This document shows, piece by piece, positions 304-44,371 of a DNA stretch of 64,000 nt; position 1 is the first letter of the stretch, and the number at the start of each line of letters is the position of its first letter. The DNA lies in IMG/VR virus record IMGVR_UViG_3300031555_004297; one strand, written 5' to 3'. Source of the stretch: a virus (lineage: Duplodnaviria > Caudoviricetes). Under the pieces are notes generated by a model. It had not been told where the DNA came from. It worked only from the letters and a program-made list of their open reading frames with translations, and ran no database searches. The position numbers and the translations under genes were made by a program.

Positions 304-765
304 TCAGAAGAGCTGGTTTGGATGTTGACTAGCATATTTCCTCCATTTCTCCCAAGCTTCAAGATCGGGCTGTATATAAACATCTCTAATAGCGCAAGGA
401 TCATTATTAACATCGAAAATCATAGGCTCATAAAGTAACTTAGGATTTTCAAATACCATAGGCTCAAAGAGGCCTTCTCTATTATAGAATCTAAGCCCAT
501 TATAGGCATTCATCTTCGTCATAAAGAATTCCTCAATCTCATGATATAGAGTCTGATAGTCTGCAAGATGCAACCAACGAGAATTGATCTCGAGCCATAC
601 TTGAGATATCATATCTTCAGTAAATGCTCCAGCTCTTGTCCAACGGTCATCGAGCTTGCATCTATTTTCTTTATCATGAACTTTATTAGGAATATCAATC
701 ATACCAATTTGAGTATGAGGTGCTATATTAAACTGTCTTATTACAGAAGGATACAAACTTGCATA
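304..765 (-). CDS. family B DNA polymerase N-terminal subunit, exon 2
   Basis: Starts YASLYPS. Joined to exon 1 (...DDFD) it restores PolB motif A, D-x-x-SLYPS. Confidence 0.9.
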   Translation of the reverse strand, partial: YASLYPSVIRQFNIAPHTQIGMIDIPNKVHDKENRCKLDDRWTRAGAFTEDMISQVWLEINSRWLHLADYQTLYHEIEEFFMTKMNAYNGLRFYNREGLFEPMVFENPKLLYEPMIFDVNNDPCAIRDVYIQPDLEAWEKWRKYASQHPNQLF

Positions 766-1869
766 CATATTTCTTCATATAAGGTCGTTACTCTTATACC
801 GCCTCCTATCTAGAGACTGCTGTATATTACTATACAGATGAGACTATATCTTTACCTTATTCAGGTACTCCCCATTTCCACTCACTTGAGTGTACTCCCT
901 TTCGGGATAGTCGTTGAACCTTAAAATTTATAGTTTTTGGAAATTCTTGTATAATGCGTTTTCGTATATACTTTTCTTAATGTATCAATGCAACTTTTTG
1001 GATTTTCGAATCCACAGTCTTTTGCTGCAATTTCAACATAAGTTTTAATTCCCATATTTTCTGGCTTTGGGTTTGCTTGAAAGTATTTACATAGTGTGAC
1101 TATTTGCTCATCAGAATATTTTCTTCCTTCTCGATGCTCAAAACTGCAATCTAAAGTAAGATGCTTCCAACTTTCCTTTTTCTTTATAGAATTTACTATG
1201 TTTTCACTAATTCCGAGAATTTGTGCAATTTCTTTACACATATATCTTCCAGACTTAAGCATTTCAACAACTTCTTTAGCTTGTTCTTCAGAAATTGTTG
1301 TAATAGGAATATGCAGTCTTGTTCTATATGCATGCAATATATTCTCAGATCTAGTAGCCCATTCAAGATTCCATTCTGTATTTTCAAATTTATTGCCATT
1401 AAGATGATTTGCCTGATATAAATAATCATTCTCGATTGGCTTAAATACCTTTAAGACTAATCTATTAAGTTGTACTATTTTTGGTCCATTACAAGTTGAT
1501 AGTACTATAAATAGATATCCACTAGTCTCTAGTCCGGGCTTCATAATAATTTCTAAATATCTATGATATACACGTCCATAATTTGATATCATATAGTATG
1601 GATATACTCCAGGAACGTGATCATTTGTTATATATTCAAACTTTTCACCAGGTTGTAATATTGATGGATTTATTACATCCATTGCAATTTGAAGTTTATA
1701 TTTCATAATTTGCCCTCTTTCTATAAATTTTCTTGGCTGCTGATTGTCCAAGATTCATAATTATATTATATAATTATGCCGTAAATTAATGAATTTACAT
1801 CTTGGAGTTTCCAGCAATTAAAGGAGTTTTCACTAACAAATTTCTCTGCTAGGCGACTATATTTAGTTT
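766..1869 (-). mobile_element. group I self-splicing intron (1104 nt) with a homing endonuclease
   Basis: The 5' exon ends in U (1870) and the intron ends in G (766). Core elements on the minus strand: P AATTGCTGGAAAC (~1807-1819), R GTTCAACGACTA (908-919), S AAGATATAGTCT (841-852). Splicing restores frame and motif A. Confidence 0.92.
921..1706 (-). CDS. intron-encoded HNH homing endonuclease (NUMOD4-like N-terminus, HTH C-terminus)
   Basis: YMISNYGRV and ANHLNGNKFEN...NLEWATRSEN motifs. Likely start MKYKLQ at 1706 after AGAGGG. Confidence 0.9.
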   Translation of the reverse strand: MKYKLQIAMDVINPSILQPGEKFEYITNDHVPGVYPYYMISNYGRVYHRYLEIIMKPGLETSGYLFIVLSTCNGPKIVQLNRLVLKVFKPIENDYLYQANHLNGNKFENTEWNLEWATRSENILHAYRTRLHIPITTISEEQAKEVVEMLKSGRYMCKEIAQILGISENIVNSIKKKESWKHLTLDCSFEHREGRKYSDEQIVTLCKYFQANPKPENMGIKTYVEIAAKDCGFENPKSCIDTLRKVYTKTHYTRISKNYKF

Positions 1870-3369
1870 ATCGAAGTCATCCAAGTTATCAAATACGTCA
1901 ATCAATCTTCCATAAATTTTCAGTTTACTATAACCATTAAGTTTCAACGGGTCGGCAACAAAGGCCCCGGGAAACTTTTCTGTAGGTTTCTCGTTAAACT
2001 TATTTACATTATTACCCATTATAAATCCATCCTTCTCAAACTCCTTAACCCCTCGATTGGTTAGGTATACAGTCTGACGATGGGTCTTTGAATAACGAGT
2101 GTTATTAATATTACATTTGCTAAAGACATAGTTTATATCTTGTGTCATAGCCTCAATGCAATACTGAACAATTGTATCCATGATATTATAGAATACAAAA
2201 GTCTTATAGTCTTTATAAGGAAGCTCGGCGATATTAGTTGTAATATGCTTATAATCGAGCTTTCTAACTTTCGCAATAGCTTCACCTATGAAATCCAGAG
2301 TAAAGGAATGGAACTTAGTCTGTCCTTTACGTCTAGATGCAAAGTGTATCATCTGATCCAAAAATACCGAATATGAAGAAATCAATGCAAAGTCGCCACG
2401 TTCAGCAAATTCACTTTTCATTCTTTCATCTACGAAATATTCTGCAACTTTATTTTTGAAATCTTGATGACATACGATATCACAAGGATCATATCCAAGT
2501 CTTTGAATACGTGATAATACATAGGGAACGTCGAATCCCATATTCCATGCCAATACGAAATCTGGCTGAAATGTATTGATAGCATTGAATAGATCTTTAA
2601 TCAGATTAATTTCATCATCTTCATCATAAAAAAGAAAGTTGTAATTGAAATTAATATTATACTTCGCCGCCATCTCGGGTCCACCGACGGCTTGAATTAC
2701 AAATGCTTGTAATTCTGGAAAGATGGATCCATTATTTACCTGCTCCTCAAATTCTGCAATAAGAGGATTTGCTTTATTCCTTAAAAGGAATACATAAACT
2801 TGTTGTTGATCTTGTAAGATTAAAGATACTGCATTAATAGGACACTCTCCTGGTTGTGGGAAGTCGCCCATCATATTAATAGAATCAACCTCGATATCGA
2901 AGAAGGATTTAGATATCGAACAAGGCTCATTCTGATACATTTTTCCGAATCTAAATCTATAGTGATCTTCAATATTCATATCACTATTAAAGATATCCGG
3001 ATGCGTATGAAGTTTTCTATTTGCAGTTCTGTTTCCATTCTTGATATTTTCAAAGAAGAAATCGAGATTTCCTGTACGCTTTGCTATATCTTTCTCAAGC
3101 TCATTATAAGGTACCGTAACTGTCTCAACATCTTCTTTATCAATAAATAATCTCGGATAAGTAGTCCTCTTATCCGACTTAGCAACATAATACTCATACT
3201 CAGGATTTATGATCTCTTCTACATGTTTTATTCCAGTATCACAATCCTTATAAACTAGTGTCAGATATTCTTTATACTTATTATCTTTTGGATCGGTTCT
3301 TCTAAAGAACATGGTATTCATGATCGTTATATTGGAACCAGGTTCTCTTCCTTTAATCATATAAATCAT
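1870..3369 (-). CDS. family B DNA polymerase N-terminal subunit, exon 1 (3'-5' exonuclease domain)
   Basis: ExoI FDIEV, ExoII AWNMGFD, ExoIII YNIMD; FPGAFV precedes motif A. Confidence 0.9.
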
Positions 3370-3488: not shown

Positions 3489-3629
3489 TTTCCCTCTGGC
3501 GAGATAGAAAAATAAAGGAAAAACATTCACCAATTTCCCATTCATGGATCATGCTTTAAATTTATGTTTATGGCGTTATCAATTAATACTAGAACATTTT
3601 AAATAATAGTATTTATGGAGGTTTATATC

Positions 3630-4613
3630 ATGGACTATTTCAAAAGTTTTGTTAAAGCTTCTGAAGATGATGAAGCTATTGTACCCATGGCATCTGAAGG
3701 AATCGGTGTAAATTTTGGATTCTTTCTTAGCGATGATGCTAGTAAAATTAATTCTGGAAACACCCCTGGTGGTGGAGAAGATAAAAAGAAAAGCAGTAAA
3801 AAGTCCGTTACCGTAAGCGGTAAAGAAGTGGTTGAACGCGCTGCAGCTGGTGGAGTTGTTAATAATAATCCGGCAGTTAATGTAGAGACTGTAGACTATG
3901 CTCAGACATATACAGAAACCAATGCACTTATTAAAGGAGCCATTGCTCAGGCAGATGAACTTAGCATGGATATTAAGAGAGATATCGATGAGATCCGTGC
4001 AAGCAAAACGCTTAAGGGCAAGTATACGTATATTACAAACCTTACATCTTCTGCAAGTTCTCTTCTTAGCACAAAGATCTCTGCTATTAAGGAATTGAAT
4101 AGTACTATTACTCAGGGTCATAATCTCGAACTTAATCGTATGAAAGCTCTTAAGCTCGATGCTCAGAAAGAAGGTAATGATGATATGAGAATTATGGATA
4201 TGTATTCTGCATTCATCAATACTCCTGTTGGAAGTTATACTCCTGCTGTACCTAGTATTCAGGATATTACCCTTGGAGTTAACTCTCAGACTGGTGGAGT
4301 AACTCCTGTAGAAATGTCTGCTCCTAACGGTGTTGGTGGGGCTCCTTTAACTCCTGAGCAGAACCGTATGCTTATGGAATCTAATCCAAATATTCAGGTT
4401 GTTGTAAGATACAATCAGACAACTGGTCAACGTGCATTTGATGTTGTTGATAGAACTACTGGTGTGAGTGTTCCTAACTATCCTTGTCCAGATGCATTCT
4501 TGCTTGAGGATACAACTATCGATGTGCACGCTGGCATTGCAAGAAACAGAAATGTTAATGCAGTATGGCCTCTTATGGTTGAAGGTTCAAATGCATTTGT
4601 TACAGAATATTAA
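3630..4613 (+). CDS. hypothetical phage protein with a central coiled coil
   Basis: Long ORF; GGAGG at 3617 favours the MDYF start at 3630; followed by a terminator. Confidence 0.8.
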   Translation: MDYFKSFVKASEDDEAIVPMASEGIGVNFGFFLSDDASKINSGNTPGGGEDKKKSSKKSVTVSGKEVVERAAAGGVVNNNPAVNVETVDYAQTYTETNALIKGAIAQADELSMDIKRDIDEIRASKTLKGKYTYITNLTSSASSLLSTKISAIKELNSTITQGHNLELNRMKALKLDAQKEGNDDMRIMDMYSAFINTPVGSYTPAVPSIQDITLGVNSQTGGVTPVEMSAPNGVGGAPLTPEQNRMLMESNPNIQVVVRYNQTTGQRAFDVVDRTTGVSVPNYPCPDAFLLEDTTIDVHAGIARNRNVNAVWPLMVEGSNAFVTEY

Positions 4614-4614
4614 A

Positions 4615-5020
4615 AAATCAAGATCCAGAGGTTTTATCCTCTGGATCTCTTTTTGTTGGCTTAGGGTGACGCCTCATAATTAGAATAAAGCCAATTCTAA
4701 TTACTGCGACTGCGTCCTTTCGATCAAAATTTGGTAAAGGAAGTAAATCATCCCTCTGGATAGACAAAAGATCATTTGAACTGATCGACAGATAAACATA
4801 TGATTCAATACATCTAATGTCAAGGTAGCGGAGCCATGGCTCAGTAAAAGTATTGCTATTATTTTTGGAGGGCCGACTTATCGCTTAGAAGCGCGGCGAT
4901 TATCTTTCGCGATAAATCAAAATGACCATAAAGCAAAGTGACGCGGGATCGGGCCCGCAAATTCGAGAGAATTCAAATTAATGAACTTATAAAAACGGAA
5001 GATCGCTTCCGCTACCTTTT
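4615..5020 (-). ncRNA. candidate structured non-coding RNA 1
   Basis: AACT-N6-TA promoter at 5020-5031; 11-bp long-range stem 4822-4832 / 5008-5018; several GC-rich hairpins; no credible ORF; terminator at the end. Confidence 0.5.
4621..4648. terminator. bidirectional intrinsic terminator
   Basis: AGATCCAGAGG / CCTCTGGATCT stem flanked by A- and T-tracts. Confidence 0.8.
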
Positions 5021-5050
5021 ACATAAAAGTTATTTAAGTAAAAATTTACC

Positions 5051-5382
5051 AAAAAAAAGAAAGGCACCCTCTGCCTTTCTCCAAAACTCTCACAGGAGTT
5101 TTGTCATTGTTTCATGTCGCCATGAAATTGTCTGGTTATTTTTTTTCATCCATCATAACCGGGTGCACAAAGTGCAATATGATGGAGCTCTTCATATTCG
5201 TATCGGGATTTCGATACTACGGGCTTAGCCCAACCAGTAAACCCGGCTCCCAGGAGCCTTGGCGTGCCTTTTCTACTAGAGACTTCAGCACATTAAGAAG
5301 AGTTAATACGCATGCTAATAAATTAAGGAGATAAACATGCGTAAGGCAATATTAAAAGAATGAATTGTTACATTCATTCATT
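5051..5382 (-). ncRNA. candidate structured non-coding RNA 2
   Basis: TATATCAT promoter-like site near 5386-5393; about ten hairpins; ends AGAAAGGCA-GAGGG-TGCCTTTCT-T7. Confidence 0.55.
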
Positions 5383-5416
5383 ATTATGATATATACTTAA
5401 AAAATATTTTACTAGC

Positions 5417-5453
5417 GATATGAGAGATAGCTATTATAGCTATCTCTCATATC
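5417..5453. terminator. 17-bp perfect hairpin after sbcC
   Basis: GATATGAGAGATAGCTA-TTA-TAGCTATCTCTCATATC. Confidence 0.75.
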
Positions 5454-5456
5454 ATA

Positions 5457-8159
5457 TTAATATCTCCAGATAATATTTCCTCTATTGTAATCGCTTACAT
5501 TTTCATCATGCTTAAGAAGTATAACGTCTGATTCATCAACTGGAAGTTCTGAGTTGTGCGATATCATAATACACTGCTCTACACCCATAATATCCATAAT
5601 TTTATTAAGCACATCAATAAAATACATTCGATTGCTATAGTCTAAAGGGCCATCAATCTCATCGAGCTTAATAATATTATATTTACTGCTAGAATGGTGT
5701 AATAGTGCAAAACTCAATATCATTGAAATCATCCCTATCTGTGCAGAACTCATAGAAGATATATCGTCATTAATATACCCATTTCCAAGGCAAGGAATTC
5801 TAAATTCTGTCTCATTAATTACGAAGGGCTGTATTACATATTGACCTTTAAACAATAAAGCAAGAAGCTCATTTGCTAATGCAATAATTTTTCCCATATA
5901 TAATTCCATGAAAATCAACTGAATTCCTGTTGTCGGAGATGAATAAAACTTGATAGTTTCGATAAATTCATAATTCTGCTGAAGTTCGTCTCTTTCCTTA
6001 ATATAATCTTTCATCATTTGCACAGAGTGAAGAGCTTTATCCCTCTCCTGCATCAGAGGTGCAAGTTTATACGTGCATTCTTGGATTTTCTTCTTAGCTT
6101 CCTCAGATCTTGTAATAGCTGCATTAATCTCATTCATTTTTCTATTATTCTCTAATAGAATAGAACGGCATTTAGCTATTTGATCAGTAACAGGCTTGAG
6201 TTTATCTTGCTGTGCAAAAATCCCATCATAAACTCCCTCAAGTTCTTGAAGTTGAGCTATTCTGATCTCTCTATCAAGAATTCCTTCTTGAATTGGAGTA
6301 ATCTTATCTGTAATAGAATCTATTGCTTCATGAATTGCTGCAATATCTTCATTAAGAGATTTGATTATCTCAACCTTTCCTTCATATGATTTCATTTCAG
6401 CTAAATATTCTTTATAGATAGCTTCTGTCTGTTTATAGATATCGAATAGGTTTGCAAGATCAATATATTTATATATCTCTCTCATATATTCGAAACTGTA
6501 TCCATTAATAAGCCTTTCAAAGAATATAGGCTTGTCTTTAAACATTTCTCCATTGGGCATTTTGGAGAGAATAGCGCCATTCTTGTCCACTTCTCTTACA
6601 ATCACAGCAAACTGATTTACCGCATTATTGAACTCGCAAGCACTATCTCCTTCTGTCAGTAATCCGAGCCTCTCAGCCTCCAATTCATAAATTAAAGCAT
6701 CGAGATCATCTTTACGTTTTGTAGGATTGGTTTTAGAGAACTCTACAGCTTCTTTAATAAAAGGACATGCATCATTGACACAATCAGAGGGTCTTAATTC
6801 AAGTTGTCCAAGTAAAGACATTTTAGATAGAATTTGAACTTCTTCATTTTTAGCATTTGCAAGTCTTGCATCAATTGCTGTAGTTTCAAATAATCTAGGA
6901 TTAATTCTTTCTGGAATCTTTCCTGTCGATACATATTCAGAGACTATATTTTGTATAAGAACTAAATCATAGCTGGCTTTAAAATTCGAGATATATTGCT
7001 CGAGATCTTTTAAAGTCTCTAAGGCAAGAATATATTCATCTTTACTGATATTCAAGAAATTAGTAATACCAGCCTGTTCAAACTGAAGCTCTATAGATTT
7101 AAGAAGATCTCTATATTCAGCAATCTTCTCTTGTAGACTGTCATAATCATGCTCACTCATAAGAGTCTTAAGGCGCTGAAGTTTTCTACTAAGTTCATCG
7201 GCCTCTGATTCCTTCTGACACATCAAAGAATCAATAGAGTTTCTATCTATCTGATTTTGAATAATCAAAGAGTTCTTAGCATCAATTGTTTTCTTGTATC
7301 CAGCTTCTAAATCACTATCCACATTATTAGATTTTATAAGACTTTCAATGATAGATCTGATCTTTGTAGAATCTTTTTCTGCTAACTCAAGTTCAGCAAT
7401 TACAGTCGTATTTAGATTCTGAATAGACCTATCTGGATCGAGTAGCTGAATAGTAGACTGCTCTTTTGCAAGATCTGCCACAGCTTGATCTTTAGCATCT
7501 TGAATCGTATTAATCTTTGCTTCCAATGCAGCAAGATTATCTGAGATTGTCTTCTCATCTCCAAGAATATTTAGTTTAGCAACAACAGCATTGATCATTG
7601 ATTTAAAATTCGAAGATCTCTTGCTTAAGGTCTTATAAATATTATTATAAGTTTCAAGTGATGAAATAATCGAGTTTACAAATCTTTTTCTATCAGCGGG
7701 GCGTTTGTCAGCTAAACCTCTATCTTCATTGCTCAATTGAGATAGTGCTGAGAAGTTTGAATCTAGTCCTAATTCATTATAAAGAATGTCTTTATAAGAC
7801 GTTACATTTCCATTTTCATTAAGCTCAACCGCTTGACCCATAAAGGTCTTAGTAATATAAGCTTTTGTATTATCTCGTTCTCCATTCGATTTCACATTAT
7901 GAATGAATACGAGCTTGTATAGCGTTTCTCCATCTTGGAGAATAATTTCTTTTCGAGCCGGCAATCCAGGAATAAATGAATCACTAGGATCTGGAAATAG
8001 GCTCATTGCTTTAGATAAAGTTGATTTACCACTACCATTATCTCCACGGATAATGGTAATTCTATTTCTACATTTTGTCATATCGATATGGATCTCAGAA
8101 AGTCCCATACCATTATAAATACCAATATAGTTAGAGAGGTAAATAGACACAAATTTCAT
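5457..8159 (-). CDS. sbcC: SbcC/Rad50-like SMC ATPase
   Basis: Walker A GDNGSGKS, long coiled coil, zinc hook CVNDACP, variant signature MSSAQ, Walker B IIKLDE, ISH. Confidence 0.92.
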   Translation of the reverse strand: MKFVSIYLSNYIGIYNGMGLSEIHIDMTKCRNRITIIRGDNGSGKSTLSKAMSLFPDPSDSFIPGLPARKEIILQDGETLYKLVFIHNVKSNGERDNTKAYITKTFMGQAVELNENGNVTSYKDILYNELGLDSNFSALSQLSNEDRGLADKRPADRKRFVNSIISSLETYNNIYKTLSKRSSNFKSMINAVVAKLNILGDEKTISDNLAALEAKINTIQDAKDQAVADLAKEQSTIQLLDPDRSIQNLNTTVIAELELAEKDSTKIRSIIESLIKSNNVDSDLEAGYKKTIDAKNSLIIQNQIDRNSIDSLMCQKESEADELSRKLQRLKTLMSEHDYDSLQEKIAEYRDLLKSIELQFEQAGITNFLNISKDEYILALETLKDLEQYISNFKASYDLVLIQNIVSEYVSTGKIPERINPRLFETTAIDARLANAKNEEVQILSKMSLLGQLELRPSDCVNDACPFIKEAVEFSKTNPTKRKDDLDALIYELEAERLGLLTEGDSACEFNNAVNQFAVIVREVDKNGAILSKMPNGEMFKDKPIFFERLINGYSFEYMREIYKYIDLANLFDIYKQTEAIYKEYLAEMKSYEGKVEIIKSLNEDIAAIHEAIDSITDKITPIQEGILDREIRIAQLQELEGVYDGIFAQQDKLKPVTDQIAKCRSILLENNRKMNEINAAITRSEEAKKKIQECTYKLAPLMQERDKALHSVQMMKDYIKERDELQQNYEFIETIKFYSSPTTGIQLIFMELYMGKIIALANELLALLFKGQYVIQPFVINETEFRIPCLGNGYINDDISSMSSAQIGMISMILSFALLHHSSSKYNIIKLDEIDGPLDYSNRMYFIDVLNKIMDIMGVEQCIMISHNSELPVDESDVILLKHDENVSDYNRGNIIWRY

Positions 8160-8271: not shown

Positions 8272-8607
8272 TTAATATCCTTCGGCAAATTCTGCAAAGA
8301 ATCTATTTGTACGAAAAGTATCTCTAAGAGGTACTGGAAATCCCATAGTCCAATCTATAACAAATTCCTTTTGACAGGATCTGCATTTCATAAACCTGAT
8401 TTCGTACTTATTAAAGTGTACATCGTATCCTTGCAAGTATGCTTCTACAGCTTCTGAATATCCTTGAGGATAATTATTAAAGCTATATAATTCAATGCGT
8501 CTTGCTTTACAATGAGGACACAAATCGTAGCGTTCGGTGACCACTAACGGATCAATAAGATTCTCTGCGGTAGCTCTACCGACAGTTTGTTCAAACGGAA
8601 CCGCCAT
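8272..8607 (-). CDS. zinc-ribbon protein
   Basis: CPHC...CRSC; ribosome-binding site upstream. Confidence 0.75.
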   Translation of the reverse strand: MAVPFEQTVGRATAENLIDPLVVTERYDLCPHCKARRIELYSFNNYPQGYSEAVEAYLQGYDVHFNKYEIRFMKCRSCQKEFVIDWTMGFPVPLRDTFRTNRFFAEFAEGY

Positions 8608-8624: not shown

Positions 8625-9302
8625 TTAGCTAAGAGCTCTATCTTTCTTAGCAGTCTTAAAGAGCTCAATAGAACTACTGCAGGATACAGCATTGAAGACT
8701 TTCCAGGGCTCATCTGAATATCTTCCAGCACTCATTGATTCAAGAATTGTATTGACATCTGTATCTTCTGTTGCAATAAGCTTATCTTTAATAATCTGCT
8801 CAAAAATACCCCAGTCAAGAGCATTGGGCATTGTAGAGCCAATATGATGGAATGCCACATAAAGCGGAATTACACGAAGATACATTGAATACGGATTATT
8901 TCTTGCAAAACTAAGATCATTATATAACGGATCTTGAGAAACAATTACATCCATATCTTTATAAATCTGACGGATGTATTTTGTAGCAGATTCAATATCC
9001 GAAATCTTAAAAATGTCTTCAGTAAATGTGTCAATATATACCAATCCTTTGTAATCTGCCATTACTCCTGTTTTTAATGGCTTATGCCCATCATCTCCAA
9101 TAAGAGTAATAATATTATTAACAGGATTAAAATTTGTATTTAGATGCGTTCTATATACATCAAATAATGCAATTTTTCTGTTAAATGCCTCATGATACAG
9201 ACCTCTGATTGGATCAACTACATGGCCCGGTGCAGGAGATTCTGTAATGAGTTTATCGAAATGAACTTTTAAGTTTCCATACTTATGATACATAAAATTC
9301 AC
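8625..9302 (-). CDS. hypothetical protein
   Basis: 225-aa ORF overlapping the upstream stop by 4 nt; AAGGA upstream. Confidence 0.75.
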   Translation of the reverse strand: MNFMYHKYGNLKVHFDKLITESPAPGHVVDPIRGLYHEAFNRKIALFDVYRTHLNTNFNPVNNIITLIGDDGHKPLKTGVMADYKGLVYIDTFTEDIFKISDIESATKYIRQIYKDMDVIVSQDPLYNDLSFARNNPYSMYLRVIPLYVAFHHIGSTMPNALDWGIFEQIIKDKLIATEDTDVNTILESMSAGRYSDEPWKVFNAVSCSSSIELFKTAKKDRALS

Positions 9303-9643
9303 TCCTTATCTATGGCAAAAGGATTTTTACCTCCAGCCTTTTCATTTATTTTCCGAACTCTTTCAGCAGCTTCTGCTCTGAGTTCTCCATTCTTAATGAT
9401 GAGGGCGGATCTTCCATAAGGAATATATCCGCCTCCCCATCTTACCATACGGATTTGATTTCCACAGTGCGTACAGATCGCTTTGCATTTAATGCTAGTC
9501 TCATCACTAATAGGAATTCCATCAGGATTCAGCTCCATTACAGTAATTTCAGAATCTGCTACACATAAAGGGCCTGAGCAAATAGGACAGCCACCAGGCC
9601 CATGAAATATCATTGGTTCGAGAAGTGTATCTTTATTATCCAT
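9299..9643 (-). CDS. zinc-finger protein with an N-terminal EPMIF motif
   Basis: CPIC...CTHC; LLEPMIF. Confidence 0.78.
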   Translation of the reverse strand: MDNKDTLLEPMIFHGPGGCPICSGPLCVADSEITVMELNPDGIPISDETSIKCKAICTHCGNQIRMVRWGGGYIPYGRSALIIKNGELRAEAAERVRKINEKAGGKNPFAIDKE

Positions 9644-9645: not shown

Positions 9646-9873
9646 TTATCTCCCTTCTGGTAGGGTATATCTCATGGTAGTAGGATCACCCTCGGCAACA
9701 ATTTTTACATCACTATAACGAGAAGTTGGTTTTGATGAAAGTTCTGTAAATGGTTTCTTTATGCCATTAACAATCACGTGACCAACCATAAACTTTTTAC
9801 CCATTTTTGCCTCTATATCTTTACGCAATCTATATTGCTCAGCAGAGTACAAAAAGTATTTAGTCTGTGCCAT
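9646..9873 (-). CDS. small basic hypothetical protein
   Basis: Start MAQTK after GGAGG, overlapping the end of the RNAP gene. Confidence 0.7.
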   Translation of the reverse strand: MAQTKYFLYSAEQYRLRKDIEAKMGKKFMVGHVIVNGIKKPFTELSSKPTSRYSDVKIVAEGDPTTMRYTLPEGR

Positions 9874-11641
9874 AATCGTCATCTTCCTCCATTTCAATAA
9901 TCTCACCTTGATCTGCATTAATTACTGGTTTAATAATTTGTTGCATCGTTGAGATTATTTCGGAGGTCATCTTAATATCCTCTTGACGATCGTGACCAAG
10001 CACTCTTTCTTCAAAGATAAGAGCATCTTTAAGATTGTGTGCTTGTTTATATTCGTCCATAAGAGCCATAAACTCTTGCTCCCATGAATTAGGTTCCTGA
10101 TATTCATCAAAGAAACCATCATAGTTTGGAGCGAAAGGACAAAGTGTTCCAGTAATACCAGGATTGCCGTCGCTCGATGCATCAAGGTCGACTCTTCCTA
10201 CATGACTGGGATGAATGGATCTATAGATATCGGGAATAGAGTTATTAGATCCCTCGCCAAGGCCCGAGACACCTTTATATGTGTATTTCAAAGCCTGCAT
10301 GGAATCCATATCATTTACCATATTTCTATAAGATACCATTTTAGATTTTGTAATAGCCACAAGCAAGTAGTTCGGATCGGTACGAATAGCCTTACGAATA
10401 CTCATAATTGTAGCTTTCTTATTCATATCAGAAACTCTGTAGATACCTCTTGCAATCTTAAATGCATAAAGAGAAGCAATATATTCAGCGAATCTGATTC
10501 TCTTCCATCTAATATCAAGATTGTCTTTCATACGAAGAGCGTTAAACTCTCGCATAATCCATCTTAAAATATGATAGGTGGTTTCCTTATCTTCCATAGG
10601 AAGCTTGATTGAATCTCTTGTACTGATATCATAAATAGACTCGAAAGAATCAAGAATACTAATACCTTTATCAAGAGTATCTGGGGTGCTATCGTCTTCA
10701 GGGTCGTAAATAGCGATCATACGTTCTGCTCCACCACCACTAAATTCAGCACCAAGGCTTCTAAGCCAATAAAGATCTGTAAAATATTCCTCAAAAGCAA
10801 TACCTTCAATAATACTTCCACAAAGAGTAATAACTACAGACTGTAAAAGTACATTTCTATCAAGAAGATATCTGGGAGTGCTTAAGAATGCTCCATCATG
10901 AATACGGAATGTATACATATCTGGATCATGAGGATTATTTCTAGTAAGGTAGATTGCTCCTTCAAGTCCAAAGAATCTCAATCCACCATAAAATCCGAAT
11001 TTAGCAAAGATATACTTTGCCGCAGGAATACCTTTATTAAAGATTCTAGAATGATAATATGTCAGTCTAAGGTCTTCACCTTCGGTTGTTTGAATCATAT
11101 TATAATATCTAGTAACTCTAACAGCCATAAAGATTATCTTAAGAGTAATGCTAGGCACTTTTGCATTCGAGGTTCCATTGTTATAGGTACTTCCATCAAC
11201 AATTTGGAATAGGGTTGAACGCATGATACCATTGATCTTAAAATAATATTTATCTACAACTTTAGGAATAGCAATAAGGACATCAAGATACGTATCCTCA
11301 GCTCTATCCTTAATATAATACGTAACCTTTACAAGACGAATACAAGATTCATTAAGATTAATGCATCCATATTGGTTGTCACGCTTCTTGGTTTTGGATT
11401 TATTCTTAGTAAGGTCTTCATAATAATTATAAAGCATCTCATTAATTCTGTCATAATCATCAATAACCTCATAAGAATGAACCTTAATCGTAAAATACTG
11501 ATTTTCTCTCTGACAAGAGTAGATGACATTCATAAGTTCAGTTACAATTTCATCTTCATCTCGTCTGAAATACATAGGGTTGAATTTAGGCCTATTTTGA
11601 TCGATGAACATCGCCATCGCTTGTCTCTGATTCATCATCAT
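9860..11641 (-). CDS. phage multisubunit RNA polymerase, beta-like N-terminal subunit (probably non-virion)
   Basis: FKING...FQ and RSIHPSHVGRVD...GNPGITGTL match RpoB motifs F-ING-ERV-Q and RDVHPTHYGR...GPNIGL. Confidence 0.85.
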   Translation of the reverse strand: MMMNQRQAMAMFIDQNRPKFNPMYFRRDEDEIVTELMNVIYSCQRENQYFTIKVHSYEVIDDYDRINEMLYNYYEDLTKNKSKTKKRDNQYGCINLNESCIRLVKVTYYIKDRAEDTYLDVLIAIPKVVDKYYFKINGIMRSTLFQIVDGSTYNNGTSNAKVPSITLKIIFMAVRVTRYYNMIQTTEGEDLRLTYYHSRIFNKGIPAAKYIFAKFGFYGGLRFFGLEGAIYLTRNNPHDPDMYTFRIHDGAFLSTPRYLLDRNVLLQSVVITLCGSIIEGIAFEEYFTDLYWLRSLGAEFSGGGAERMIAIYDPEDDSTPDTLDKGISILDSFESIYDISTRDSIKLPMEDKETTYHILRWIMREFNALRMKDNLDIRWKRIRFAEYIASLYAFKIARGIYRVSDMNKKATIMSIRKAIRTDPNYLLVAITKSKMVSYRNMVNDMDSMQALKYTYKGVSGLGEGSNNSIPDIYRSIHPSHVGRVDLDASSDGNPGITGTLCPFAPNYDGFFDEYQEPNSWEQEFMALMDEYKQAHNLKDALIFEERVLGHDRQEDIKMTSEIISTMQQIIKPVINADQGEIIEMEEDDDYGTD

Positions 11642-12283: not shown

Positions 12284-12359
12284 AATTTCATCCTCCTTAT
12301 AAATACTAAAAATAAACCGGATGGCGTAAACCATCCGGTTTACACCCGGAGTGATTTAG

Positions 12360-13085: not shown

Positions 13086-15380
13086 TTACAAAATATATTT
13101 GTCTGGATTTAGCTTGAATGCAGCCATGTCTACTATAATTGTTTGATCTCCAACTTTATTAGTTTTAGAGCTGGTAAAGCCTTCATAAGGAACAACCAAG
13201 ATATCTGTATTCTTTGTAACTCCAGCATCACCTCTAGCATCACAACCTCTAGAGGTAAGATATTGTGTCAATTGATCATCTGGGCGACATCCTGTATATC
13301 TGATAATCTTTCCAAATTTCATTCCATAAGAAATTACTATATTGGGAAGATTAATAATCTCAGAAATATCATCAGCAAGATCTCTTCTCTCAGAAACTAT
13401 CGTTTTAGCTGTAACTCCTCCAATACCTTTAATTGCAATCAATTCGCAATACAAGCTATTATCATCCATAACTACAAGCTTATTGAACGGAATCTCATTG
13501 AGAATCTTTTTCCATGTTTCGATAGCGATTCCTGTAAATCCAATAGATCCCATTAATTCATAATCCTTAATAGGTGTTGACTTTACAGCATTGATTCTAT
13601 CTAAAAGTTTTTCTGCAGTTGTAGGTCCTAGTTTCTTTACGTCTTCATAAGTGTAATTCAGAAGCTCTGTTAAACTTTGAGTTCCTAATTCTCTGAAAGT
13701 ACTTTCTCCGAAGTCTTTCAAATTAAGTTTAGACATCATGTTTGTCATTCTCTGAATCGTTCTTTCAGGACATTTCTTATTAGGACAAATTGCAGATTTA
13801 CCAGATTCATTGATTACAATTTCAGCTCCGCAGAATGGACAATTAGTAGGAAATGGTACCGGTTCTCCAGGATTATTGAAATTGTGATCCACTGGTGGTT
13901 TTGTTACATATGGCATTACATCATTCGTATATTCGACTTGAATAATATCTCCGATCTTTAGTCCAAGATCCATAAATCTTTTATATGAATGACCACTAGA
14001 CTTAGTATGAATCGTCCCAATAAATTCTACTGGTGTATAATGAATCATTGGCGTCACAACTCCGTCTTGTCCAACAGTAAAGGTATAGCCTGTAAAGATC
14101 GCTTCTCTAGATAGAGGATTGAACTTGATTGCCATACTATACTTATTAATTGAGTTTTCTCTTCCAAGTGCTTTGATAATTTCAGGATCTCTATAGGATA
14201 TGACTACACCATCATACATAAATGGTAGTACATTTCTCATAGCTTCTGCTTCTTTAACAAATTTATATACCTGGAAAAGAATTTCTGTATAGGTTCCACT
14301 TAGAATTGCATACTTAAGATATACACCAGAATGGTAATATTTATTAAGAAACTCAATCTCAGTGACCCTATCAATATCTTCGATAGAAGTTGCAAGAGGA
14401 ACAAGTGTAATAAGATCTCTATAGTCATAAGCATCAGATGATCCTAGAAGACCAGTCATACCATTTCTACTATTCTTATAAGCTTTTCCTCTTAATCTAC
14501 CCATTTTATCGAGGTTTTCATAAGTCATGATAGCCTCAAATTTCATTCCGAAAGCTTCTGTAGCTGGTATCTCAGGAGCATAGGGAAATACATAGCCGCC
14601 AAGTACTTCAGTCATATCAGCAGCTATATCTGCATTTGCATCACCTCTAGATCTTGCACTCAAGATCTTATTAGTAACATCAGCTTCGACAGATACTCCA
14701 TCATATTTAAGCTCTGCGATAAGCTCAAATGGAGTAGTCATGTCAATAAGACCCATTTGAAGATGCTTGCCTAAGAAATCTCTTTCAAATATCTTGACGT
14801 TGTCATCATCAAATACATCTTTTTCCATTGCTTCTTTATTTAATGTAAACTTACACTTATCAAGCGATCCAACAAGTTTAGGATACATGTGAGGCACATT
14901 TACATTCTTTTTAGCAATCACTTTACCAGAATTTCTATCAATATCCTGATACAATTTCAGATCGATAGGTGGAGCTTTAATAAGATCATCATAATATAAA
15001 CTACCATCTAAAAACTTCTGAGGTTCGTCCATAAATATCATAGGTTCAATAAATTCTCCAGACTTTGTTTCCTCACCATTCTGATTAAATCGAATGACTG
15101 GAGATCCTACTTGGAATTGTTTATCATACTGCTTGTATTTCTCAAGCAAAAGATCATATACTCCATCATCTAGAAAGAGTACAGACCTATCTGTATTATT
15201 GTAGACAATTTGACTGATCATAATAATGGTGCTTGCACACATCTGATCATATTCATCTAAAACTGGTCTATTCAATAGACTTATAGCATAATCAGAAACC
15301 TTAATAATATTATTAGAAGACAGGCATGATAAGTCGGCCTCCATTAATTGATTAAGGATTCTTTTTAGTAATTCATGCAT
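13086..15380 (-). CDS. ligA: NAD-dependent DNA ligase
   Basis: ELKYDG adenylation motif, SRGD, YDGVV, Cys4 zinc finger (CPFC...CPNKKC), HhH repeats, C-terminal BRCT. Confidence 0.93.
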   Translation of the reverse strand: MHELLKRILNQLMEADLSCLSSNNIIKVSDYAISLLNRPVLDEYDQMCASTIIMISQIVYNNTDRSVLFLDDGVYDLLLEKYKQYDKQFQVGSPVIRFNQNGEETKSGEFIEPMIFMDEPQKFLDGSLYYDDLIKAPPIDLKLYQDIDRNSGKVIAKKNVNVPHMYPKLVGSLDKCKFTLNKEAMEKDVFDDDNVKIFERDFLGKHLQMGLIDMTTPFELIAELKYDGVSVEADVTNKILSARSRGDANADIAADMTEVLGGYVFPYAPEIPATEAFGMKFEAIMTYENLDKMGRLRGKAYKNSRNGMTGLLGSSDAYDYRDLITLVPLATSIEDIDRVTEIEFLNKYYHSGVYLKYAILSGTYTEILFQVYKFVKEAEAMRNVLPFMYDGVVISYRDPEIIKALGRENSINKYSMAIKFNPLSREAIFTGYTFTVGQDGVVTPMIHYTPVEFIGTIHTKSSGHSYKRFMDLGLKIGDIIQVEYTNDVMPYVTKPPVDHNFNNPGEPVPFPTNCPFCGAEIVINESGKSAICPNKKCPERTIQRMTNMMSKLNLKDFGESTFRELGTQSLTELLNYTYEDVKKLGPTTAEKLLDRINAVKSTPIKDYELMGSIGFTGIAIETWKKILNEIPFNKLVVMDDNSLYCELIAIKGIGGVTAKTIVSERRDLADDISEIINLPNIVISYGMKFGKIIRYTGCRPDDQLTQYLTSRGCDARGDAGVTKNTDILVVPYEGFTSSKTNKVGDQTIIVDMAAFKLNPDKYIL

Positions 15381-15482: not shown

Positions 15483-17726
15483 TTACTTATTATTAGATGC
15501 TGCTTCCTCTTTAGCCTTTTTTGCAGCTTCGAGGGCTTCGCCTTCAAGGAATTCCATAGGATAGATTTCCATAGGCCATTTATAATCCCTTGTTCTAAGA
15601 AGTCTTTGATACTCGGCTTCCATATCGATCTTTTCATCTTTATGATGGAAGACCATAGGTTCTACGAGTCTTCTAGGATCATCCCAGAAATACATAGGAT
15701 CGATAAGCATAGCATGCTCTTTCTTCTTGGCAATCTTATCAAATGTAAGTTTCAATCCCATAGTTTTCAAATAAACATTAAGGATTTCTACATTACGATT
15801 CTTAGATTCCATATCAAGCTTAACGTCGACATTGAATGCATCGCCAGTAAGCATTGATTCAGTAAGACGTCTTGCGTTAGGAGATGTCGAATAGAGCATC
15901 AACATCTGTACAACAAGTTTGGCACCCAGATGAATAAGATTTCCGGTTTCCATGTCTCCAAAGCGTATTGGTGTTCTAGAGAACAAGGCACGATAGTTAT
16001 TACTGGATTTGCTCTTACTATTTTCATTTCTGATATTGGTAGCAGACAAAGATGTTACTGAAAACTTCTCTTCTGCATACTGTTTCAGACGATAGATATA
16101 TTGATATCCGTAAATCATAGGTCTTCTGGAGGGTACGTATTTGATTTCTCCAGCAGAATCCTTGATTGGCATCATCATTCTCTCAGGCTTGGCCCAGGGG
16201 AATGCTTCATAAAGTTGAGCTAGTTTATCAATCGTCATGTTCTCGCTCATCGGTTCGATAACGAGATACATGCATTTTTCCTCAGCATAGACATTTGAGA
16301 TATATGCAATACACTCATCATCTGTCATTCTACTGAACTGCTCTTCTGTAAAATGTACCATTGAAGGAGCCACGATCTGTAACAACTCAAGATACATTTC
16401 AACACATTGACCTACATCGAGCACATTCAGATTTATAAATCTGAGCATTTGCATACAGATATAGGTTAAAGAGATTTCAAACAGCTGACCTGCGTTTTCT
16501 CTACCATATACGCCACACATGTTTAAGATAACATCGATTACCTTTCCATCTATGGTTCTCGGCATTTCGCTATCAGGTTTAACTCTTGCAGTAATACCTT
16601 TACCGCCATATCTATTGGAGAGTTTATCTCCACGAAGCACAGGAATCTCTTCTATAAGAGTAATCTCAAGCTCAATATTCGAGAATACACGTTCAGAAAA
16701 ATACTGCTTACCGCTAAGAATACCTCTGCAATCAGATACAAGCTTTGAAAGATCATAATCGAATCTGCATCCAGCATCTACATAAGGCTGAAGAAGATCA
16801 ATTACTTCATTTGCAAGTCTAATCTTTTCTTCATAATATCTCTTAATCTGAGTATTATGAACATACTCCTCTAGTTTTTCAGGAGCATTAGAATATACAT
16901 CGATATCGACTACTCGACCAGCGACTGTATATCTTTCATCAGAAATTGAAAGCTCTCTAAGTCTAGCATAAGACTGAGAGAACAAGCATTCTTCCTTCTT
17001 CTCTCTACGGAATCCACAAAGAATGCTATTAATTGTTTCTTCACCAATATCTGGGAAGATCTTATAGACCTCCGAATTACCGTAAAGATTAAGGGGAATA
17101 TCGTTATCATTAACGACGATTCTTACTTTCTTCACAAGTGGAGATGCAAGCTTCTTAGAAGCCGATTCAGAAATAACGATAGCATCCTCCATTGTTTCTT
17201 CACATGAAGAATACATTGTCAGAAGGTTTTTGCCATCCATACGATTATCATACTCATCAAATGACATACTCTTTTGAATCACTGTACCTTTGGGAATGAA
17301 GGTACCAGGACTCATATAGTCAATAGCATCATTATTGAGAAGATAGCCATAATTTTCTGTAATGTGTTTATATTCTTTTCTCTCGAAAAGACGGATCTCA
17401 CCAGTTTCTCTATTTAAAGCAAACATGTAATAGTGATGCTTAGGACAGAAAGAAAACTTGGGTATGCATCCGATTACCTCGAGATCATATTCAACCGCAA
17501 TATATGAAGATGAATTTCGTCCAAATTCATTCTCATAGCCAGTCATAATATATGGAACATCGGGAGATATGAGAGATAGTTTCTGCTCAAGCTGGCTTCC
17601 GTACATGAGTTTACGAGAACCCGAGTTTGATGGAGAAAACGGCATCATTGCTCCTTTTCCAAGAATTAAGTCTGGCTTCTCTGTTTGGATACTTTGAATT
17701 TCGTTTCGCAAATTAACTGAAGCCAT
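15483..17726 (-). CDS. phage multisubunit RNA polymerase, beta-like C-terminal subunit (probably non-virion)
   Basis: EDAIVIS, GDKLSNRYGGKG (RpoB GDKMAGRHGNKG), RENAGQLFE, RFGDME. Confidence 0.92.
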   Translation of the reverse strand: MASVNLRNEIQSIQTEKPDLILGKGAMMPFSPSNSGSRKLMYGSQLEQKLSLISPDVPYIMTGYENEFGRNSSSYIAVEYDLEVIGCIPKFSFCPKHHYYMFALNRETGEIRLFERKEYKHITENYGYLLNNDAIDYMSPGTFIPKGTVIQKSMSFDEYDNRMDGKNLLTMYSSCEETMEDAIVISESASKKLASPLVKKVRIVVNDNDIPLNLYGNSEVYKIFPDIGEETINSILCGFRREKKEECLFSQSYARLRELSISDERYTVAGRVVDIDVYSNAPEKLEEYVHNTQIKRYYEEKIRLANEVIDLLQPYVDAGCRFDYDLSKLVSDCRGILSGKQYFSERVFSNIELEITLIEEIPVLRGDKLSNRYGGKGITARVKPDSEMPRTIDGKVIDVILNMCGVYGRENAGQLFEISLTYICMQMLRFINLNVLDVGQCVEMYLELLQIVAPSMVHFTEEQFSRMTDDECIAYISNVYAEEKCMYLVIEPMSENMTIDKLAQLYEAFPWAKPERMMMPIKDSAGEIKYVPSRRPMIYGYQYIYRLKQYAEEKFSVTSLSATNIRNENSKSKSSNNYRALFSRTPIRFGDMETGNLIHLGAKLVVQMLMLYSTSPNARRLTESMLTGDAFNVDVKLDMESKNRNVEILNVYLKTMGLKLTFDKIAKKKEHAMLIDPMYFWDDPRRLVEPMVFHHKDEKIDMEAEYQRLLRTRDYKWPMEIYPMEFLEGEALEAAKKAKEEAASNNK

Positions 17727-30931: not shown

Positions 30932-31008
30932 TTTTATATTTCCTTTCTGTTTAAAATAAAATTGAACCCTCGGAGAATATTTCCTCCGAGGGTTGTTTAT
31001 CTTTATCA

Positions 31009-31650: not shown

Positions 31651-31785
31651 TTTTCATTCTCCTTTAAAATATGTAGTATTATGAGCGGATATTTACTTTG
31701 CTCACTATTATAATATCTTATCATTTGTGAAAGCTTTTACGAAATAAAAAAAAAGAAAGAGGGGCAACCCTCTTTCTTTTAAATA

Positions 31786-39138: not shown

Positions 39139-39738
39139 TTAGATATTAACCCCTGAATTTCCATCACTATTCCAGTTATTAAACATACGTTCTCTTCTCA
39201 TAGATTCCTCCATCATCTGACGGTATTCCTGTTGTTCAGGTGTCAAATAATTTTGAAGATCTGAGAGCATTGTATTAGGGTCATCTGGGATAGGTGTAGT
39301 GTTGAAATCCTCAATATCGAAGGGGTCATTGGAGTAGTACTCGCTGACCGAAATACAGAAAGAATATATACTTAAACAATCCTCAAGTGCCATAAGAAAG
39401 TACTTTCTGTCACCCGTTTTTGTTTCAGTCTGTTTAGTTTCTGTAATAACCCTCGATCTGTGAATATCTACATTAACTCCGGAAATAAGTTTTTCTTTGA
39501 TATCATTATATGCTTCGGTACGACCAATTCTCACAGAATAAATATTCTCATGCATCGTATCATCATTATCATCGATATCAATTTTATAAAGAATAATATA
39601 AATTTTCTCTTCAATGCCTTTTGTCTTGACATCGAAGTCCATTGGTTTAATGAGGCCATTTTCAGGATTAACCTGTTGAGGATTTGGCTTCTCATCAAAT
39701 ATCATTGGTTCAATTAGATGCTTAGTCTCTTCAGCCAT
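39139..39738 (-). CDS. hypothetical protein with two N-terminal PMxF motifs
   Basis: AGGAGG before MAEET; LIEPMIF and LIKPMDF. Confidence 0.78.
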   Translation of the reverse strand: MAEETKHLIEPMIFDEKPNPQQVNPENGLIKPMDFDVKTKGIEEKIYIILYKIDIDDNDDTMHENIYSVRIGRTEAYNDIKEKLISGVNVDIHRSRVITETKQTETKTGDRKYFLMALEDCLSIYSFCISVSEYYSNDPFDIEDFNTTPIPDDPNTMLSDLQNYLTPEQQEYRQMMEESMRRERMFNNWNSDGNSGVNI

Positions 39739-40027
39739 CTCTTCTCCTCCTTGATTTAGCATATTCTACAATAGAAAATGCATGTCGTTTAATTCCAACA
39801 GCTTTATAGTCTTTTGATAATTCTTCTTTTGCATAATTATACATACGACTATTTATATCTAATGGGTTTGAATGAGGAAGGATAAGAATAATATCTTCAT
39901 CATTAGTTTTATTTGTCATTTCATATCTTGCTAAGAGTATTGCATCGGATTCTATTGTAATATACTCATACAAAACCTGAAATGTACACTCTTTCATATT
40001 AAGTTTTACAATATCATACATAATCAA
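39731..40027 (-). CDS. hypothetical protein
   Basis: 98 aa, in operon; GGAGG. Confidence 0.68.
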   Translation of the reverse strand: MIMYDIVKLNMKECTFQVLYEYITIESDAILLARYEMTNKTNDEDIILILPHSNPLDINSRMYNYAKEELSKDYKAVGIKRHAFSIVEYAKSRRRRDG

Positions 40028-42538: not shown

Positions 42539-42601
42539 ATGAAGTCCAGAGGATCGAATCCTCTGGACTCAATCTTTTGGTGTCATACACCTACTACGGA
42601 G

Positions 42602-44371
42602 TTATCCATATAATACCTCCTGCTGCTCTTCAAAGAATATCATTGGTTCAATAAGATTTTCTTGAGACCTCATATCAGCTGCTCCAAGATCATCTATACT
42701 AGTATTCGCAGATACAATTTTTGCAGAGAAGATATTAGGATTATTCGAAGTTGTCTTCGTAATTTGTCCCATATCAACAATTGCATTAGTTTGATACTGC
42801 GATTGCATAGGTAGTCCTGTACCGAATTGAGGTTCTGCTCTCATCGTTGTCTTAAAACTAGCCAGTCCTCCAAAGTCTTCTTTAAGCTTTAGAGTATTAC
42901 CGACAAACGGAAGATATACAAATTCCGTATTTCCGGCATTATATCTAATTTTAATTCTTTGAACACCGAGGAATCTCTCACCAGTATTTGTTGTTTCTGG
43001 TGCAATCAAGAATCCTGCGTCAATATTATTCAAGATAAGCATTGATTCACTGATATTAGATCTTCCAATCAATCTAACCAAGTCAGACTTACTAGCTTTA
43101 CGTCCTTCGTCGATATGCTTAGACGCATCTCTATTAAGCTGAGCTACAGTTATAATCGGAATATCTTTTATTTCAGCATAGGTTTTAAACTCATCTACAA
43201 TCGCACCGTATTCAAGACGAGTATCTTGAAGTCTTTCAGTCGATCTAATACGGCCGATATAGTCCTGAAACATAGCTATTACTTCCATACCCTGATCTTC
43301 AAGATCTTCAGTTAAAGTATAGAGATAACTTGTATCAACAGAGTTTGACGGTTGGAATTTGATAATAATATCAATCGGAGATGCATCCGTCAAATACAGT
43401 TCTCCTTCTTCTCTGAGCATATTTATTGCACCTTCTGGAGAGAAATCTGTCATTGCAGGTCTTCCAGTTGCCATTCCGAACAATCTTTCGACAGACTCTG
43501 TTACAGTGTTCTCCATTGTAAGAAGTACAATACATGGTCTCTTTGTAGGATCTTTTGTTTTATAATCCTTATTATATTTCTTTAACTGATAAATCATATT
43601 AAGTACGACTGATGATTTACCTTCTCCAGGAAGTCCGAAATAGACATAACAACGTCCATTCTCAAAACCTCCACCAAGAAGCTCATTCATACCCTGCATA
43701 CCAGTTACAAGTTTACGTCTCGGAGAATTCAAAGTATTATAAGTATCATACATAATATCTTCGAAATATCCTTCACGCAAACTAAAAATCGCTTCTGTAC
43801 GATCTTCATGCTTTGAACGTCTGAAATCATTCTGAATATTATTAATCGCTTTTTCAAATTCTGCAACTATTTCTGCTTTAGAACCATAATCTGCAGAACG
43901 AATTCTCGAACACAATTCAGCCAATACATCGACGTTATTATACACATGAGTATATTTTAAAGCTTCGGATACCATGTTATTCATCCAGGATAACTCTGCT
44001 CCAGTTAATCCTTTGAATTCATCGAAATTTACAATATCCGAATCAAGAATTCCTCCGTAAATATGAGTCATTATCATATACGGATCAGTCAAATTCATAT
44101 CTAGTCTAGCTTCTATACCTTTCTTAATGAAAGATACACGCTTCGATTTCTCAAAATCATTTATATAACTATCAGGATTGATCAAATGAATCAAATTCCT
44201 TAAGTTAACAAGCTGGCCTCTTCTAATCGTTTGATTATCTGTGACCAAGCTCTTACACATTATATCAAGAGTCCTTAAGTCAAGATTCAAGTCAAGTTGT
44301 TTATTTCCTTTAACAACAGAAGATCCTTGACCCGAGTACTTTGCTCTTCTTTCTAAGTTCAAGAATCTCAC
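42602..44371 (-). CDS. dnaB: DnaB-like replicative helicase
   Basis: GLPGEGKS, LTMEN, QDYI, VAQLNR, ISES. Confidence 0.9.
   Translation of the reverse strand: MRFLNLERRAKYSGQGSSVVKGNKQLDLNLDLRTLDIMCKSLVTDNQTIRRGQLVNLRNLIHLINPDSYINDFEKSKRVSFIKKGIEARLDMNLTDPYMIMTHIYGGILDSDIVNFDEFKGLTGAELSWMNNMVSEALKYTHVYNNVDVLAELCSRIRSADYGSKAEIVAEFEKAINNIQNDFRRSKHEDRTEAIFSLREGYFEDIMYDTYNTLNSPRRKLVTGMQGMNELLGGGFENGRCYVYFGLPGEGKSSVVLNMIYQLKKYNKDYKTKDPTKRPCIVLLTMENTVTESVERLFGMATGRPAMTDFSPEGAINMLREEGELYLTDASPIDIIIKFQPSNSVDTSYLYTLTEDLEDQGMEVIAMFQDYIGRIRSTERLQDTRLEYGAIVDEFKTYAEIKDIPIITVAQLNRDASKHIDEGRKASKSDLVRLIGRSNISESMLILNNIDAGFLIAPETTNTGERFLGVQRIKIRYNAGNTEFVYLPFVGNTLKLKEDFGGLASFKTTMRAEPQFGTGLPMQSQYQTNAIVDMGQITKTTSNNPNIFSAKIVSANTSIDDLGAADMRSQENLIEPMIFFEEQQEVLYG

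Follow-up and report, generated by a model that had tools for sequence, protein, structure and literature searches.

In an uncultured AR9/PBS1-like jumbo phage from the gut and in its relatives, 18 protein families carry a short hydrophobic peptide tag on inserted loops or on extensions of their termini; each genome has its own wording of the tag, which its unrelated proteins share. We suggest, at a probability of roughly 0.6, that the tag is a clamp-docking motif that co-evolves with a stand-alone phage clamp and works as the clients of T4 gp45 do.

The window analyzed here is a 64,000-nucleotide stretch of this phage's DNA. Its split family-B polymerase, split multisubunit RNA polymerases and divergent DnaB place it among the group-1 (phiKZ/AR9-like) jumbo phages; the DNA polymerase is a split PolB whose N-terminal half (DNAP-N) is itself split by an intron. 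In this genome the tag is a seven-residue hydrophobic-x-[ED]-P-M-x-F (Table 1). An initial sequence-only reading had reported nine copies, and all nine are at the places given, on the minus strand and in frame within long ORFs, although its spans took in just the last five codons of each copy, and the two it assigned to DNA polymerase (LFEPMVF and LYEPMIF) are located more precisely in exon 2 of DNAP-N. PHROG and Pfam support the gene labels in the window, among them the protein names of that reading. A P-M-Y-F at residue 19 of beta-N, a subunit of non-virion RNA polymerase (nvRNAP), was considered as a tag and rejected as a conserved structural site.

Table 1. Tag copies and associated genes in the window.
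Feature	Position	Strand	Remarks
First 111 codons of the 266-aa sliding-clamp-fold protein (candidate hub)	1..335	-	Gene runs off the window
Exon 2 of DNAP-N (motif A and tag-bearing C-terminal extension)	304..768	-	
Tag, DNAP-N C-terminal extension	415..435	-	
Tag, DNAP-N C-terminal extension	451..471	-	
Intron-encoded HNH endonuclease	921..1751	-	No clear tag in window; relatives tagged at N-terminus with own genome's tag
Exon 1 of DNAP-N (PolB exonuclease domain)	1849..3369	-	
Conserved protein, family c9	3615..4613	+	N-terminal tag in relatives; window copy not clear
Weak tag, N-terminus of zinc-ribbon ORF 8272-8607	8539..8559	-	Orthologs bear their genome's tag at same place
Tag, N-terminus of zinc-ribbon ORF 9299-9643	9605..9625	-	
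Degenerate tag slot near C-terminus of nvRNAP beta-N (9860-11641)	9917..9937	-	Clear tag in relatives
Tag in insertion of NAD-dependent ligase (13086-15380)	15033..15053	-	Insertion missing in AR9
Third, weaker tag in nvRNAP beta-C tail	15549..15569	-	Overlooked by sequence-only reading
Tag, nvRNAP beta-C tail	15648..15668	-	
Tag, nvRNAP beta-C tail	15687..15707	-	
Tag, N-terminal region of ORF 39139-39762 (family c18)	39634..39654	-	
Tag, N-terminal region of ORF 39139-39762 (family c18)	39697..39717	-	
Tag, C-terminal tail of divergent DnaB helicase (42602-44371)	42635..42655	-	

The motif might have proved no commoner than expected proteome-wide, as the sequence-only reading allowed; it is far above chance. 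The strict pattern, which was defined post hoc after the copies were noticed, has 9 matches among the 63 proteins of the window vs 0.02 in shuffles (maximum 1 in 1000), and the plain P-M-x-F core 11 vs 0.87 by chance. Selection acts on the peptide, as had been proposed, because synonymous codons match no better than chance: codon agreement among the window copies is 0.45 vs 0.42 +/- 0.06 expected, and is at chance level in 10 genomes, the window and nine more. A DNA repeat or gene conversion that spread the word, with the peptide as a by-product, would fit the near-identical 15-mers common to three window copies, but is refuted by the codon agreement and by the lack of strict copies in other frames or on the opposite strand of the window; we give it practically no weight.

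In 17 relatives the same positions carry another word in each genome (N-P-F-x-H, R-G-M-x-Y, K-x-F-M-x-R and D-P-P-F among them), and even sister genomes bear different words. We derived 13 genome tags from the data. The copies co-vary by genome, with an own-genome rank of 0.234 vs a null of 0.50 +/- 0.01 and 0.496 for control termini; the own genome ranks best in 357 of 899 rows, vs 89 expected, and an unsupervised word search returned the tag as the top word in 9 of 18 proteomes. The tag is also conserved in orthologs, a point on which the sequence-only reading could have failed: at least one loose copy is present in 68 of 74 DnaB tails (7 in shuffles) and 114 of 117 beta-C tails (27 in shuffles).

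A leave-one-family-out scan found the tag in 18 of 86 families, including both DNA polymerase halves, ligase, DnaB, an SF2 helicase, SbcD, four of the five nvRNAP subunits and homing endonucleases. None is a recognized virion protein, which bears out the earlier remark that structural proteins lack the motif; RecA, gyrase, SbcC, primase, the Dda-like helicase and RNase H were also without it in the family scan. The copies are mostly found no more than 45 residues from a terminus (22/28 and 21/25, vs 8.5 and 6.6 expected), with conserved internal copies in insertions of ligase and of DNAP-C, and valency is high, with three copies on beta-C and two to four on DNAP-N. Burial in folded cores, which would have told against a docking motif, is not what we see: the copies occupy terminal extensions and insertions that AR9 lacks, and the beta-C tail with its three copies is modeled by AF2 as coil with no mutual sheet (moderate confidence). 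AR9 itself has neither the tag, the tag-bearing extensions nor a detectable clamp gene, of which a divergent homolog may have escaped detection; the AR9 gene that follows DNAP-N is a DEDD exonuclease and was rejected as a clamp. Pfam, PHROG, NCBIfam and Atlas give no assignment for the tagged ORF 39139, and neither it nor the clamp-fold protein matches any cultured phage. An Atlas shape search returned a single unnamed viral cluster, and Rfam and single-protein locus searches gave no match.

The candidate hub is encoded directly after DNAP-N, overlapping its end, and adjoins DNAP-N in 23 of 23 relatives that have DNAP-N. The gene is stand-alone (175-275 aa), RNase H being a separate family (c59), and forms about 800 clusters at 50% identity; the window's overlap with L209, where the whole 266-aa gene spans 4747-5547, is 335/335 identical. 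The AF2 model (pLDDT 94.9) predicts a two-domain sliding-clamp fold: every one of the first 39 VIA rows is a clamp or processivity factor, with the next unrelated row at Z 3.1, and the best structural match is T4 gp45 (Z 9.0, rmsd 4.1, 188 residues aligned, 9% identity), a score that, at such identity, shows predicted fold rather than function. Foldseek matched the protein to ASFV PCNA (E 1.8e-4), Rhc-type RNase H proteins were weak matches in BFVD, and phiKZ gave no sequence match.

The co-variation across genomes and the clamp-fold candidate give strong indirect support to docking on a common hub, so that this part of the original proposal has been strengthened; the binding we infer. The peptide would hold the phage enzymes that act on DNA to a single hub that the phage encodes, for which the stand-alone clamp-fold protein is the likeliest candidate; the tag would probably lie as an extended strand along the peptide-binding face of that protein, with clamp pocket and tags drifting together and tandem copies adding avidity. 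A peptide carried by the clients is the topology of a clamp, not that of an SSB. The clamp would recruit polymerase, ligase, helicases and late RNA polymerase to the phage's DNA and might, in the manner of T4 gp45, couple late transcription to replication; homing endonucleases would gain access to that DNA by copying the tag.

Several observations count against the clamp. No RFC-type AAA+ loader (gp44/62) was found among the core families, whose Walker-A members are only RecA, SbcC, DnaB and Dda-like, though a degenerate Walker A would escape; given this result, the clamp may act as UL42 or Rhc do, with no loaded ring. DnaB is tagged although replicative helicases are not usual clients of clamps, and RNase H, a proposed gp45 client, is untagged. 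Overall clamp divergence does not track tag similarity in a mirror-tree (rank 49/61, a low-power test on saturated, non-independent pairs) that singled out no plausible hub, and in which the clamp-fold family, the fastest-diverging of the core set, was collected by HMM and synteny, biasing the comparison. Finally, the related phiKZ Rhc clamp domain binds its polymerase via a broad folded interface, with no short motif described (PMC13648687). Modeling the clamp-fold protein in complex with the DnaB tail scored 0.06 (mark 0.32), which we count neither for nor against the clamp.

The tag may instead dock on another phage hub, a DNA-coating or scaffold protein organizing a nucleus-free replication and transcription compartment. 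Co-variation requires just one common phage partner, the valency, extending to four nvRNAP subunits, resembles scaffold-client recruitment, PhuZ is encoded in eleven relatives, and no loader was found; conserved uncharacterized families c40, c41, c7 and c33 are candidates. We nevertheless consider this hub unlikely: RecA, gyrase, SbcC, primase, the Dda-like helicase and RNase H depend on the same DNA yet are untagged, the clamp-fold gene already adjoins the gene of a tagged polymerase tail, and searches of 17 relatives, with completeness of 90% or more in 12, found neither chimallin nor Imp1/PicA, although both were detected in the phiKZ positive control. The same absences take weight from the earlier suggestion of a compartment-targeting signal. 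Family c44, a chimallin candidate by position, was rejected because its match is AR9 gp230, which lies beside a baseplate gene.

Tags that bind each other as homotypic stickers, co-assembling without a separate receptor, would directly yield tandem copies and a genome-wide word, but the central proline of many versions disfavors in-register sheets, the coil predicted for beta-C points the same way, and the fixed position of the clamp gene is left without reason; we find this improbable. Still less probable is a degron or chaperone signal marking early enzymes for turnover or folding by a phage protease or phage GroEL. The tag is hydrophobic and mostly near termini, and relatives encode GroEL, but so does AR9, which lacks the tag; the internal copies in ligase and DNAP-C are conserved, and the tag is restricted to DNA-acting proteins. 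That it binds a host protein such as DnaN, which the sequence-only reading listed among the proteins to screen, is very unlikely: several carriers are typical clamp clients, but no version resembles the conserved Q-L-[SD]-L-F, and a conserved host pocket would not drive sister genomes to different words.

The T4/RB69 clamp gp45, our best structural match, has L-D-F-L-F clients in gp43, gp55, gp33 and ligase gp30, and as here a short hydrophobic motif is found at the C-terminus of the polymerase, within an insertion of the ligase and on late-transcription machinery or a sigma-like subunit (PMC2988020, PMC6212786). Unlike in T4, none of the 13 derived tags resembles L-D-F-L-F, the motif differs between genomes, the candidate client families number about 18 and include DnaB, SF2 helicase, SbcD and homing endonucleases, the phage encodes a multisubunit RNA polymerase, and no RFC-type loader was found. 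Rhc (RNase H-clamp; phiKZ gp155, Goslar gp190) shares a clamp-derived fold, a group-1 host genome, split PolB and no loader (PMC13648687, PMC13648698); here, in contrast, the gene is stand-alone beside DNAP-N without a fused N-terminal RNase HI domain, chimallin was not found, and Rhc has a folded binding interface, with no peptide tag described. The PCNA PIP box, the bacterial beta-clamp motif and herpesvirus UL42/UL44 with polymerase C-terminal peptides likewise join unrelated clients through one short peptide to one clamp-fold hub, and herpesviruses are known to use the fold without a loader (PMC13648687, discussion); those motifs stay conserved across long distances, while this tag is re-worded between sister phages, and the glutamine-led consensus of the PIP box and beta-clamp motif is not found in it. 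Phage-nucleus import (ChmA, Imp1/PicA) also selects DNA-acting proteins, including nvRNAP, but uses surface features, not terminal signals (PMC13282480).

Literature searches found no paper describing the tag system. Group-1 jumbo phages were described as without a sliding clamp (PMC7824862) until October 2026, when chimalliviruses were reported to have a fused, monomeric one; the present clade has a stand-alone clamp-fold gene. The simultaneous re-wording of one motif in 10-20 unrelated genes is a rare natural example of a whole network co-evolving around a hub, offering many candidate orthogonal hub-peptide pairs. The tag looks like a readable client list, marking which uncharacterized proteins act on phage DNA, and late transcription-replication coupling in AR9-like phages becomes directly testable. 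More tentatively, each nucleus-less lineage may have a peptide password of its own, which co-evolves with a clamp-fold adaptor that needs no loader and by which only that lineage's replication and transcription enzymes gain access to its DNA. If so, the password would insulate the phage against co-infecting relatives with no need of a nuclear shell, and resident homing endonucleases would be forced to copy it.

All nine copies of the seven-residue tag, hydrophobic-x-[ED]-P-M-x-F, noted in the sequence-only reading are present, all on the minus strand and read in frame within six long ORFs; the coordinates it gave cover the last five of the seven codons of each copy. The carriers are DNAP-N (one half of a split PolB, interrupted by an intron and tagged in exon 2), a zinc-ribbon protein, the NAD-dependent ligase, the nvRNAP (non-virion RNA polymerase) β-C subunit, which has a weaker third copy, an unknown protein, and a divergent DnaB. 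Matches to the strict pattern number 9 in the window versus 0.02 in shuffled proteins; as this pattern was derived from these same copies, the P-M-x-F core (11 versus 0.87) is the fairer figure. Selection acts on the tag as a peptide, as had been proposed from its differing codons: shared residues use the same codon in 45% of cases, versus 42 ± 6% from codon usage, agreement is at chance in nine further genomes too, and the window holds no off-frame copy. A by-product of a DNA repeat is thereby reduced to a negligible prospect.

For comparison we used 17 IMG/VR relatives, as whole genomes or large portions of them. The window's β-C is 33% identical to that of AR9/PBS1 and about 22-24% to those of phiKZ-like phages among the matches listed, and its DNA occurs in animal gut and faecal metagenomes. 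The tag is conserved in orthologs, with loose copies in 68 of 74 distinct DnaB tails (7 after shuffling) and 114 of 117 distinct β-C tails (27 after shuffling); proline and final aromatic are 79-93% conserved in β-C copies 1 and 3. It also lies outside folded cores, in segments missing from AR9 proteins: the β-C tail, a ligase insertion, a C-terminal extension of DNAP-N with 2-4 copies in tandem, and an insertion after catalytic motif C in DNAP-C, the other PolB half. The β-C copies are coil in an AlphaFold2 model (block pLDDT 53-74), moderate evidence for exposure because this part of β-C normally packs on other subunits.

Distant relatives carry different words in the same slots, each genome reusing its own word in unrelated proteins. 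In 9 of 18 proteomes the tag came out top in an unsupervised search for gapped words common to many proteins: N-P-F-x-H in 15 proteins of its genome (0.11 expected), M-x-x-F-M-x-R in 14 (its variant K-x-F-M-x-R in 17), L-x-x-G-M-x-Y in 13 and K-x-M-C-x-x-V in 10, with D-P-P-F, W-x-P-V-x-F and P-M-V-x-F in other proteomes. Tag words co-vary within genomes: compared pairwise over 14 slots and 18 genomes, with slots picked after the motifs were seen and the word in each not imposed, the own-genome slot ranked 0.234 (null 0.50 ± 0.01) and came first in 357 of 899 rows where 89 would be expected, versus a rank of 0.496 for termini of untagged core proteins. Kinship accounts for little of this similarity, because it follows genome similarity at a rho of 0.24 and sister genomes have differing tags.

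Scanning whole proteins against each genome's tag profile, with the tested family left out, identified 18 tagged families of 86: both DNA polymerase halves, ligase, DnaB, an SF2 helicase and SbcD; nvRNAP β-N, β-C, β'-C and a gp226-like promoter-specificity subunit; and HNH homing endonucleases, two zinc-ribbon proteins and five unknown families. Several homing endonucleases, though mobile, begin with the word of their host genome. Capsid, sheath, terminase and virion RNA polymerase were unflagged, upholding the claim that structural proteins lack the tag, as were GroEL, PhuZ, RecA, gyrase, SbcC, primase, a Dda-like helicase and RNase H. Further genes of the window and its relatives are listed with the candidate partner gene below.

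Positions of features in the window and in related sequences
Feature	Sequence	Position	Strand	Remarks
Clamp-fold gene, first 111 codons	window	335 to 1		full 266-aa gene on another contig of same phage
DNAP-N intron	window	766-1869	minus	splits gene exactly in polymerase motif A; no Rfam match; gene uninterrupted in most relatives
HNH endonuclease ORF	window	921-1751		within DNAP-N intron
Two genes	window	11645-13016	minus	in 17/17 genomes, not detected in AR9; by eye, one resembles a tandem HU/IHF protein, the other has an apparent terminal helix-turn-helix
295-aa ORF	window	56193-57080	plus	glycine-rich loop near end; by eye, resembles a solitary Cas7/RAMP protein; no match in PHROG or NCBIfam; homolog in G001 only among relatives
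HNH-like unknown family c55	L054; L055	13799-14518; 1774-2439		two paralogs per genome, one tagged: a built-in control
Family c40	L053	7656-8447		tagged; conserved, beta-rich, flexible partly acidic tail; may be a single-strand DNA-binding protein
Family c41	L054	2989-3795		as c40, untagged
PhuZ-like tubulin (c76)	G021	30424-31659		in eleven relatives
ThyX thymidylate synthase	L054	12312-13709		in eight relatives; suggests thymine DNA, versus uracil-DNA AR9

A single shared partner changing along with the tags would be the simplest cause of the co-variation. The candidate is a fast-evolving core gene of 175-275 aa directly after DNAP-N, present in 23 of 23 relatives having DNAP-N; neither in AR9 nor in phiKZ was it detected. 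Its product is predicted to have a clamp fold: the 39 best structural matches of the confident model (pLDDT 94.9) comprise only sliding clamps and processivity factors, with T4 gp45 at the top (Z 9.0, rmsd 4.1, 188 residues), the first unrelated match comes at Z 3.1, and Foldseek agrees. The family comprises 807 clusters at 50% identity and has no entry in Pfam or PHROG. It is not Rhc, an RNase H fusion, as the clade's protein is without that fusion.

In T4, gp43, gp55 and gp33 have similar hydrophobic termini that gp45 binds, as it does a loop inserted in the ligase (PMC2988020, PMC6212786), and the clade's tags likewise lie on a polymerase tail, a ligase insertion and a sigma-like subunit. 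This shared layout leads us to favour a clamp-docking motif (probability roughly 0.6), working like gp45, PCNA and β-clamp client systems. It does not belong to the T4 system, from which it departs in consensus and loader. The docking to a shared hub proposed from sequence thus stays the favoured reading, on co-variation, the clamp-fold gene and client layout; binding to the hub is what we infer from these. Against it, the core families yielded no RFC-type loader, clients such as DnaB are unusual, a weak divergence test did not single out the clamp, and the clamp domain of phiKZ Rhc uses a broad folded interface (PMC13648687).

A different phage scaffold could instead be the dock, though we consider this doubtful; association of tags with one another is improbable, a degron or chaperone signal rather more so, and binding to host DnaN would be more surprising still. 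Nuclear import does not describe this system, and targeting to a replication compartment, the other suggestion made at the outset, becomes less likely: neither chimallin nor Imp1 was found in the 17 relatives by searches that did detect the phiKZ control, despite the PhuZ-like tubulin in some of them. The tag itself is real, and our literature search found no paper describing it. If clamp docking is correct, the tag would bind the clamp-fold protein at a docking site, tandem copies would provide avidity, and late transcription might be coupled to replication.
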